Virus record (IMG/VR): IMGVR_UViG_3300042453_001086
Coordinates: 1 to 64,000 of that record
Reading direction: 5' to 3' (one strand)
Length of the DNA stretch: 64,000 nucleotides
Source: a virus
Part shown: in pieces, positions 11,992 to 16,300 of the stretch
Layout of the letters: each line of letters opens with the position of its first letter
How positions within the stretch are numbered: the stretch's first letter is position 1
The notes under the pieces: model-generated
The model's database searches: none
What the model saw: the letters and a program-made list of their open reading frames with translations, nothing else
Told to the model about the DNA's origin: nothing
Translations under genes and position numbers: made by a program

Positions 11992-11993
11992 GG

Positions 11994-12064
11994 GGTGACG
12001 TATGAGAATCGAACCCATCTAGGTGGTTCCACAAACCACTGCCTTACCTCTAGGCTAACGTCAC
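11994..12064 (-). tRNA. tRNA-His(GTG), no encoded G-1
   Basis: Cloverleaf; loop TT-GTG-GA; C73; the base at -1 is T. Confidence 0.92.
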
Positions 12065-12137: not shown

Positions 12138-12141
12138 AAAG

Positions 12142-12213
12142 TGGAACCGACAAGATTTGAACTTGTGACCGCTCGGTTATCAGCCGAGTGCTCTACCGCT
12201 GAGCTACGATTCC
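12142..12213 (-). tRNA. tRNA-Ile(GAT)
   Basis: Cloverleaf; loop CT-GAT-AA. Confidence 0.95.
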
Positions 12214-13241: not shown

Positions 13242-13313
13242 AGCGGATTAGGGGATTCGAACCCCTGACGAACTGCTTGGAAGGCAGCCATTCTACCACT
13301 GAATTAAATCCGC
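13242..13313 (-). tRNA. tRNA-Gly(TCC)
   Basis: Cloverleaf; loop CT-TCC-AA. Confidence 0.95.
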
Positions 13314-13615
13314 AGGTGCTCTCCACTACACTATATATCTGCTACGATAGCGTGTAGTTTTGAGCGAAACCCAACATATTGGGCTGCAATCTCCAGTTTT
13401 TCATGCTTTTGATTGCCTTTGCGTGTCGGACTTGAACCAACAACCTCCCCACCATCGGGGGCGCTCTACCGATTGAGCTAACGCTGATAGAGGCTTGACC
13501 GCGTAAGCAGTCTGTTTGAGCATATCATGCCCGTGCCAATCTCGGACTAGGCTAACTTTGTACTACCTGGCCAGATAGTTGGCGTCTTTCTAGGCTATCT
13601 GCCTAACGACTACCA
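13314..13615 (-). ncRNA. Unassigned ~300-nt structured RNA (paralog 1) containing a tRNA-like domain at 13415-13494
   Basis: Fills the Leu-Gly spacer; 5' hairpin shared with 16169..16298; D-arm and T-arm present with a non-canonical anticodon arm. Confidence 0.6.
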
Positions 13616-13616
13616 A

Positions 13617-13698
13617 TGTCGCTGAGAGGACTTGAACCTCCACGAGTTACCTCACTGGAACCTAAACCCAGCGCGTCTACCAATTCCGCCACAGCGAC
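13617..13698 (-). tRNA. tRNA-Leu(TAG)
   Basis: Class II cloverleaf; loop TT-TAG-GT. Confidence 0.95.
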
Positions 13699-13787: not shown

Positions 13788-13816
13788 ATTATACCCGAGA
13801 GGGTGGGGGATGTCAA
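13788..13816 (-). promoter_or_regulatory. Consensus sigma70 promoter for the fMet-Leu-ncRNA-Gly unit
   Basis: TTGACA-N17-TATAAT; the -35 sits inside GGGGG/CCCCC. Confidence 0.85.
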
Positions 13817-16168: not shown

Positions 16169-16298
16169 TGGAGTAAGCGTAATATACCTCAAGGGCATAA
16201 CAGAGGCTTACCCTCTATCGTATCACAGCAGACAAGTTTATCTCCAGGCGCTTGTGATAAGTTGGTCTCCTTCTAGGCTATCTGCCTAACGAGTACCA
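16169..16298 (-). ncRNA. Unassigned ~130-nt structured RNA (paralog 2) between tRNA-Ser and tRNA-Pro
   Basis: 5' hairpin nearly identical to 13615-13575 with compensatory changes; further stems TATCACA/TGTGATA and AGAGG-GTAAG-CCTCT; ends in CCA. Confidence 0.65.
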
Positions 16299-16300
16299 AG

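Follow-up and report, generated by a model that had tools for sequence, protein, structure and literature searches.

In this study, we found that a tRNA-like element in the tRNA array of a T4-like cyanophage is a clean 65-nt insertion in the hypervariable slot of a conserved spacer RNA, a feature of which we found no description in the literature. Our overall conclusion is that the element is a non-decoding, dispensable, tRNA-derived cassette inside that spacer RNA, probably co-transcribed with the tRNA operon. As to how it came to be there, we give about an even chance to the reading that it is a non-decoding remnant of a class-I tRNA gene that is carried as a passenger.

The window, by which we mean the whole 64,000-nt stretch of DNA that was analysed, covers positions 1 to 64,000 of a complete 189,882-bp T4-like cyanomyovirus record (IMGVR_UViG_3300042453_001086) whose nearest named relatives are the Synechococcus phages S-CREM1 and S-PM2. 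The locus is present in sequencing runs from lake, freshwater and wastewater metagenomes. ARAGORN makes 22 calls in a tRNA array on the minus strand of the window, and the Rfam tRNA model has 25 matches over the whole phage genome; three further tRNA genes are located at 167381-167954 (minus strand), outside the window and far from the main array. Besides tRNAs, Rfam models for wcaG, PhotoRC-II and the glutamine riboswitch have matches in the window. The features of the locus are as follows, with element position i corresponding to coordinate 13488-i on the minus strand.

13788..13816, minus strand: consensus sigma-70 promoter TTGACA-17-TATAAT (12/12), upstream of tRNA-Met
13617..13698, minus strand: tRNA-Leu(UAG), upstream neighbour of the spacer (ARAGORN, Rfam)
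13488..13616, minus strand: 5' part of the spacer RNA, with variable hairpin P1, hairpin CUAUCU/AGGUAG, conserved blocks, covarying hairpin GACUGC/GCGGUC and block AAGCCUCUAUCA
13417..13487, minus strand: tRNA-like element as called, tRNA-His(atg) (ARAGORN; Rfam tRNA, 39.4 bits)
13420..13484, minus strand: common 65-nt core, the actual insertion, with a GCGU/ACGC 4-bp acceptor stem, D arm, 15-nt anticodon arm, variable region, T arm and one A
13478-13463, minus strand: D arm GCUC-AAUCGGUA-GAGC (read from the sequence)
13462, minus strand: G26 (read from the sequence)
13447..13461, minus strand: shortened anticodon arm CCCC / CGAUGGU / GGGG (Rfam alignment; alignment to tRNA-Ile(GAU))
13446-13442, minus strand: variable region AGGUU (read from the sequence)
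13441-13425, minus strand: T arm GUUGG-UUCAAGU-CCGAC (read from the sequence)
13417..13419, minus strand: variable 3' junction after ACGCA, AAG in the window and TC or AAA in other copies
13314..13416, minus strand: 3' part of the spacer RNA, with hairpin GCAAUC/GAUUGC, variable hairpin GCCCAA/UUGGGU and an invariant 3' domain GCUC..ACUACA..UGUAGU..GAGC
13242..13313, minus strand: tRNA-Gly(UCC), downstream neighbour of the spacer (ARAGORN)
12141-12213: intact tRNA-Ile(GAU), in the same array as the element (ARAGORN)
11992-12064: intact tRNA-His(GUG), in the same array as the element (ARAGORN)

Three observations suggest that the element is likely transcribed within the tRNA operon precursor. 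The promoter at 13788..13816 would drive tRNA-Met, tRNA-Leu, the spacer and tRNA-Gly; we found no terminator-like site on the minus strand from tRNA-Leu to tRNA-Gly; and a contig from a lake metatranscriptome (X5) spans tRNA-Gly to tRNA-Leu including the element, although an assembled contig shows no RNA ends, strand or level and is thus not proof of transcription.

The element is clearly related to tRNA. The Rfam model RF00005 matches it with 39.4 bits, above the gathering threshold of 29 bits, and the E-values of 8e-5 (window) and 6e-8 (genome) indicate that the match is not due to chance. Nonetheless, this is the lowest of the 25 tRNA scores in the genome, the other 24 falling between 52 and 74 bits. 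The original prediction had described a canonical D arm, an AGGUU variable region and a T arm, together with an anticodon arm of only 4 bp with loop CGAUGGU and no U33; all of these are in the sequence and are borne out by the Rfam alignment. The bases of the tertiary core are likewise all present (U8, A14, A15-U48, G18, G19, A21, G26-A44, G53-C61 and T-loop UUCAAGU), so that D arm, T arm and tertiary core are those of a canonical tRNA. The two ends are not. The anticodon arm has 15 nt instead of the normal 17, 4 bp instead of 5, and G at position 33, and a 7-nt segment in it aligns where the Rfam model has 9; it therefore lacks the canonical 5-bp stem and 7-nt loop with U33. The acceptor lacks the canonical 7 bp with a defined discriminator and 3' end: GCGU/ACGC are paired and are the only acceptor pairs common to all copies, C2.A69 and A3.A68 are mismatched beyond them, and the outer three acceptor "pairs" of the ARAGORN and Rfam calls are flanking sequence. 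The prediction of an acceptor stem of four contiguous pairs extended through an internal loop by GCCU/AGGC thus holds for the four pairs only, since the extension, like the U1-A70 pair, is private to the allele in the window and the 3' junctions of other copies differ (ATC, AAAA). The copy in a second metagenome contig (L086) illustrates this point: its junction differs, ARAGORN makes no call, and the local Rfam match of 36.3 bits is confined to model positions 4-67. The actual unit thus comprises the 65 nt at 13420-13484, with a 4-bp acceptor stub. The absence of an encoded CCA, also pointed out in the original prediction, is real and yet uninformative, since CCA is encoded by 0 of the 22 tRNA genes of the array.

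Taken as it stands, this anatomy supports the proposal that the elbow is intact while decoding and charging features are lost. We consider decoding or charging by the element very unlikely, given the lack of U33, the anticodon stem and acceptor of four pairs each, the lack of a conserved 3' end, and the intact tRNA-Ile(GAU) and tRNA-His(GUG) elsewhere in the array. An ARAGORN call of tRNA-His(AUG) at this site should not, in our opinion, count as a decoding tRNA. Fold predictions bear on the same question. In isolation, the cloverleaf is the predicted minimum-energy structure of the element. In context, it is predicted to be 5 kcal/mol worse than a structure in which the conserved 5' flank CCUCUAUC (13485-13495, minus strand) pairs with the complementary GGUAGAG(C) of the inserted D arm (13463-13471, minus strand), unlike the neighbouring tRNA-Gly, whose cloverleaf is the minimum-energy fold in context.

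The sequence surrounding the element is a conserved structured RNA in its own right. We gathered syntenic loci via the small ORF downstream of tRNA-Gly and via a conserved spacer block, and derived the structure of the spacer from three alignments (A1-A3) and RNAalifold. The gene order of the relatives is the same as in the window (wcaG, promoter, tRNA-Met, tRNA-Leu(UAG), spacer, tRNA-Gly(UCC), ORF), and in relatives that lack the insert the Leu(UAG)-Gly(UCC) spacer is 203-253 nt long and has no tRNA-like call. The sequences that flank the element in the window (129 nt on the 5' side, 103 nt on the 3' side) are contiguous in these relatives (alignments A1 and A2). The spacer contains a covarying hairpin and an invariant 3' domain (GCUCAAAACUACA...); between block AAGCCUCUAUCA and this domain lies a slot that is hypervariable in length and content, and it is there that the insert sits, between the flanks AAGCCTCTATCA and GCAATCAAA. 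The relatives' alignments thus support the earlier suggestion that the element is embedded in a longer non-coding RNA, and they show this RNA to be conserved. The 3'-side hairpins GCCCAA/UUGGGU and ACUACAC/GUGUAGU that the prediction had listed with the element do exist, but they belong to the spacer RNA and are kept in relatives without the element.

The conserved spacer RNA was seen at 13314-13616 (minus strand) of the window and in L008, L014, L016, L019, L020, L089, L091, L094, L112 and L122, all of them freshwater cyanomyovirus contigs. Searches with the window and with the insert-less relative L094 returned no Rfam family for it. A manA RNA occurs at or near the equivalent slot in S-CREM1 and in L010, and manA was considered as an identity for the spacer RNA; it was rejected, as neither the window nor L094 matches manA or any other Rfam family. 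The spacer sequences of S-CREM1 are not homologous to the spacer RNA of the window. A candidate second tRNA-like element in S-CREM1, between tRNA-Met and tRNA-Leu (L001, about 2846-2925), was dropped because it has no Rfam match at E<=1. We also observed that the first 40 nt after tRNA-Leu (13577-13616, minus strand) are repeated directly after tRNA-Ser(UGA) (16260-16299, minus strand) with 90% identity, so that the same hairpin follows two long-arm tRNAs; L086 shows the same pairing of the repeated hairpin after tRNA-Leu and tRNA-Ser(UGA).

The distribution of the insert among related phages is all or nothing. Orthologous loci either lack the element entirely, as in at least 12 related haplotypes, or carry a copy whose core is 100% identical, as in 10 samples and always at the same Leu-Gly site (window, L086, L119, L121, L124, L120 in part, and the Logan contigs X2, X3, X4 and X5). 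Relative to L008, L014, L016, L019, L020, L089, L091, L094 and L096, it is a clean insertion. A normal tRNA at the same place in relatives, which the original prediction had named among the grounds for abandoning it, was found in none of them. The filled sites themselves are diverse: L086 has only ~82% identity to the window over 7 kb and a 3' junction of ATC where the window has AAAG; in L119 the junction takes a third form, AAAA; X2 and X4 match the window exactly, X3 resembles L086, and X5 adds another haplotype.

A lookup of contigs that encode exactly the neighbouring 56-aa ORF recovered both site states. L119, L121, L124 and L120 (partial) have filled sites, whereas L112 and L113 encode an ORF identical to that of the window and yet have an empty site with other hairpins; similarly, the ORF and tRNA-Gly allele of L122 are identical to those of L086, yet its site is empty and has other hairpins. 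The X4 sample contains filled and empty forms side by side. The element is thus polymorphic among near-identical phages, on mosaic backgrounds, and its absence from L112, L113 and L122, together with the two forms in X4, indicates that it is dispensable. The mosaicism extends to tRNA-Gly(UCC), which has two alleles with ~20 differing positions among otherwise close relatives (window 13242-13313, minus strand, versus L016:2407-2479); one allele is common to all insert-bearing copies, and L122 has this same allele with an empty site. HNH-type endonuclease ORFs occur within tRNA arrays at L114:540-887 and L115:459-842, and both contigs encode the exact 56-aa ORF of the window. It is plausible that HNH endonucleases drive the cassette-like mosaicism of these arrays. 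Insert-bearing samples come from lakes and wastewater and date from 2017 to 2025.

Once the insert is removed, the window groups with L086 in a clade supported at 96/99 among insert-less relatives, which indicates a single event. Judging from the sequences, gain of the element is favoured over loss, because close and distant relatives alike are without it and because acceptor positions 1-3 of the call are the conserved flank of empty sites. Searches for a donor or for copies elsewhere gave zero matches in IMG/VR for three patterns (anticodon arm plus variable region; exact D arm plus T arm; T arm plus acceptor) and zero in GTDB genomes for the anticodon-arm pattern, and a scan of JGI metagenomes found one true copy, that in L086. 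Since these scans of IMG/VR, the JGI metagenomes and GTDB turned up no copy outside the Leu-Gly site, nothing points to a functional family that moves or exists in several copies. The D arm alone occurs in 13 viral contigs, in tRNAs of seven isotypes, none of which is the donor.

The closest bona fide tRNA appears to be a bacterial-type tRNA-Ile(GAU), and we tentatively suggest descent from such a gene. Among the E. coli tRNA genes, only tRNA-Ile matches the element, with 78.6% identity over positions 8-60 and an E of 0.5, and tRNA-Ile is the best E. coli match in 5,408 of 5,426 genomes, at a median of 3 places per genome. In an alignment with tRNA-Ile(GAU) of E. coli and of a Phycisphaerales genome, the anticodon arm of the element is an Ile arm that is shortened by 2 nt but still contains GAU, and the Levitt pair, G15-C48 in the aligned tRNA-Ile(GAU), is A15-U48 in the element. 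The assignment is tentative because the D arm is common to many isotypes; matches of the element in the phage database include Asn, Phe and Ile tRNAs.

The core of the element is more uniform than its surroundings. Among four full-length insert-bearing haplotypes, 0 of 64 columns vary in the core and 49 of 248 in the flanks (Fisher p=4e-6 in a naive test); when clustered flank changes are counted as ~13 events, the probability of seeing none in the core is ~0.03. The bases directly after the core do vary (AAAG, AAAA, ATC). Recent origin combined with recombination could explain the invariance of the core without selection. At the same time, this invariance is compatible with co-option of the element, either as a signal for processing or as a protein-binding module.

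These observations can be combined into the following model for a passenger remnant. A 65-nt tRNA body would have entered the hypervariable spacer slot once, in one lineage of freshwater T4-like cyanophages, and would then be transcribed within the tRNA operon precursor, where, judging from its anatomy, it could neither mature to a chargeable 3' end nor present an anticodon. We propose that it persists because it folds as a compact autonomous domain at a place where the spacer RNA tolerates any hairpin, and that frequent short-tract recombination in tRNA arrays, as hinted at by the HNH genes in related arrays, has brought one and the same cassette next to several different flanks. The remnant reading is supported by the weakest tRNA score in the genome, separated from the rest by a gap (39.4 versus at least 52 bits); by defects at both functional ends, the anticodon arm and the acceptor; by the clean, dispensable insertion in a hypervariable slot and the single supported clade (96/99); by redundancy with intact tRNA-Ile(GAU) and tRNA-His(GUG); by the best E. 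coli match to tRNA-Ile and an Ile(GAU) arm that is short by 2 nt; by the lack of a copy at any other site searched; and by the 5 kcal/mol disadvantage of the cloverleaf against flank/D-arm pairing in context. Several observations count against it. The core shows no decay and the tertiary core is intact, although a randomly decaying pseudogene should be hit there too; samples that contain the insert span the years 2017 to 2025, so it has persisted; and the reading does not account for the symmetric loss of exactly the outer three acceptor pairs. The tRNA pseudogene that the original prediction had offered as its alternative is thus our leading reading, with the reservation that its core has not decayed among copies with differing flanks.

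That reservation is the starting point for readings in which selection keeps the element. In general form, which we consider unlikely, the 65-nt tRNA body would be kept as an accessory RNA module. It would give the spacer RNA an L-shaped handle for recruiting a host factor that recognises tRNA, be it RNase P, RNase Z, the CCA-adding enzyme or a defence protein that reads shape, and, like counter-defence genes, would come and go among freshwater cyanophages that are nearly identical in other respects. A related reading, which we also consider unlikely, is a processing or stability module in which the tRNA body would recruit RNase P and/or RNase Z (or the CCA-adding enzyme) to the precursor and thereby cut the spacer RNA into a ~130-nt 5' RNA and a ~100-nt 3' RNA, or cap their ends. 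The mascRNA module in MALAT1 and tRNA punctuation in mitochondria provide models for such a role, and RNase P and RNase Z recognise the tRNA elbow and T arm, both of which are intact here. The insert also sits exactly between the conserved 5' blocks and the 3' domain, its core is invariant while its junctions vary, the other members of the operon are released by the same enzymes, and a contig from an RNA library spans the region, though such a contig shows no RNA ends. However, close relatives do without the element, so splitting the spacer RNA is not required; four acceptor pairs stacked on the T stem make a helix of 9 bp where a full tRNA has 12, and the copies diverge beyond these pairs, so that no common cleavage site is defined; and the predicted pairing with the 5' flank competes with the cloverleaf. 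More doubtful still is the proposal at the heart of the original prediction, that of a decoy or sponge for host tRNA-binding proteins such as shape-reading defence nucleases or modification enzymes, serving as accessory counter-defence; we regard it as quite improbable. Such a role would fit an intact elbow with inactivated decoding ends, an invariant core, a consensus early-type promoter upstream, and presence/absence polymorphism in a hypervariable slot among near-identical phages, which is typical of accessory counter-defence loci. Yet our analysis produced no direct evidence in favour of a decoy. The anticodon nucleases PrrC, RloC and colicins D and E5 read the anticodon loop, and to our knowledge the loop CGAUGGU is unlike any known target loop of such enzymes, which counts against the proposal. 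The element is, moreover, single-copy and restricted to one narrow lineage with no relatives elsewhere in the databases searched, and it has neither a Ro60/TROVE partner in the phage nor a YrlA-like match. Known phage countermeasures against tRNA nucleases are tRNAs that can still decode but have altered loops, not dead ones (PMC10264068), which again speaks against a decoy.

Two further readings take the element to be, or to have been, a functional tRNA gene. It might be ancestral, a once-functional gene between two spacer RNAs that was precisely deleted in most lineages and is decaying in the rest. The order at the syntenic slot of S-CREM1 (tRNA-Leu, structured manA RNA, tRNA-Asn, short RNA, tRNA-Gly) speaks for such a history, a GC dinucleotide repeated at the two junctions offers a possible route for a deletion to the exact empty site of L019, and gain and loss have equal cost if the tree is rooted on the branch of the window and L086. 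On the other hand, distant relatives (L008, L020, L091, L096) and all close relatives bar one clade are empty, so that multiple exact losses would be needed; the would-be acceptor positions 1-3 (UCA) are conserved flank in every empty site; and the S-CREM1 spacer sequences, as noted above, are not homologous to the spacer RNA here. We consider this history improbable. That the element works as an unusually designed tRNA whose anticodon is AUG or GAU seems hardly credible. Both ARAGORN and Rfam call it, and non-canonical but conserved phage tRNAs do exist. Against this stand the four conserved acceptor pairs with no conserved discriminator or 3' end, the 4-bp anticodon stem without U33, the silence of ARAGORN on the L086 copy, and the fact that the element is dispensable among near-identical phages and redundant with tRNA-Ile(GAU) and tRNA-His(GUG).

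The closest known things are, for the element, the pseudogenes of phage tRNA clusters and, for its host RNA, RNA C and RNA D of T4. Like the element, phage tRNA pseudogenes lie inside arrays, have sub-par covariance scores and damaged anticodon and acceptor ends, and are redundant and variably present; the element differs from them as a body-only cassette with a symmetric 4-pair acceptor, lodged inside a conserved spacer RNA and with a core free of decay. RNA C and RNA D are stable non-tRNA RNAs in a T4-type tRNA cluster, co-transcribed with it and of unknown roles (PMC3014915). Their analogue here would be the spacer RNA that hosts the insert, an analogy for which we claim no sequence relationship; they are fixed in their cluster, whereas the tRNA-like piece is optional. 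The mascRNA of MALAT1/MEN-beta (RF01684) is likewise a non-decoding tRNA-shaped domain inside a longer non-coding transcript. The element belongs to a bacterial/viral system and has an acceptor of only 4 bp, and RF01684 has no match on it, hitting only the genuine tRNA-Leu with 21.8 bits, below threshold. YrlA and the Y RNAs that act with Ro60 (Rsr) share with the element an intact elbow, a reduced anticodon arm and an "acceptor" that continues into the rest of the RNA. Identity with YrlA (RF02553) was rejected, the score at the element being 9.9 bits against a cut-off of 69, and a search for a TROVE/Ro60 gene (PF05731) in the 189.9-kb phage genome gave no match. Phage tRNAs that evade anticodon nucleases (PMC10264068) are alike as phage tRNA-type genes with an anticodon loop unlike the host form, but they are complete and decoding, whereas the element has neither U33 nor a 5-bp anticodon stem nor a full acceptor.

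If the element is only a remnant, its value is descriptive: tRNA-sized cassettes enter and leave cyanophage tRNA arrays at base-pair precision, and a conserved but so far unnamed spacer RNA can take up any foreign fold at one slot. If instead the invariance of the core reflects selection, the element would exemplify, in a bacterial virus, the reuse of a tRNA body as a module for structure or recruitment within a different RNA, and the natural insert-plus and insert-minus phages would make this directly testable. Finally, the metagenome scan returned a match in L085 that was rejected as a second copy, being an unrelated, high-GC, phage-like "tRNA-Cys" in a context that is not homologous. This gene, a tRNA-Cys(GCA) at L085:2394-2465 (OCZT010056124.1), has a 15-nt anticodon arm CCCC / CGGCAAG / GGGG with G at position 33 and three acceptor G.U pairs, and may be a second short-armed tRNA look-alike.
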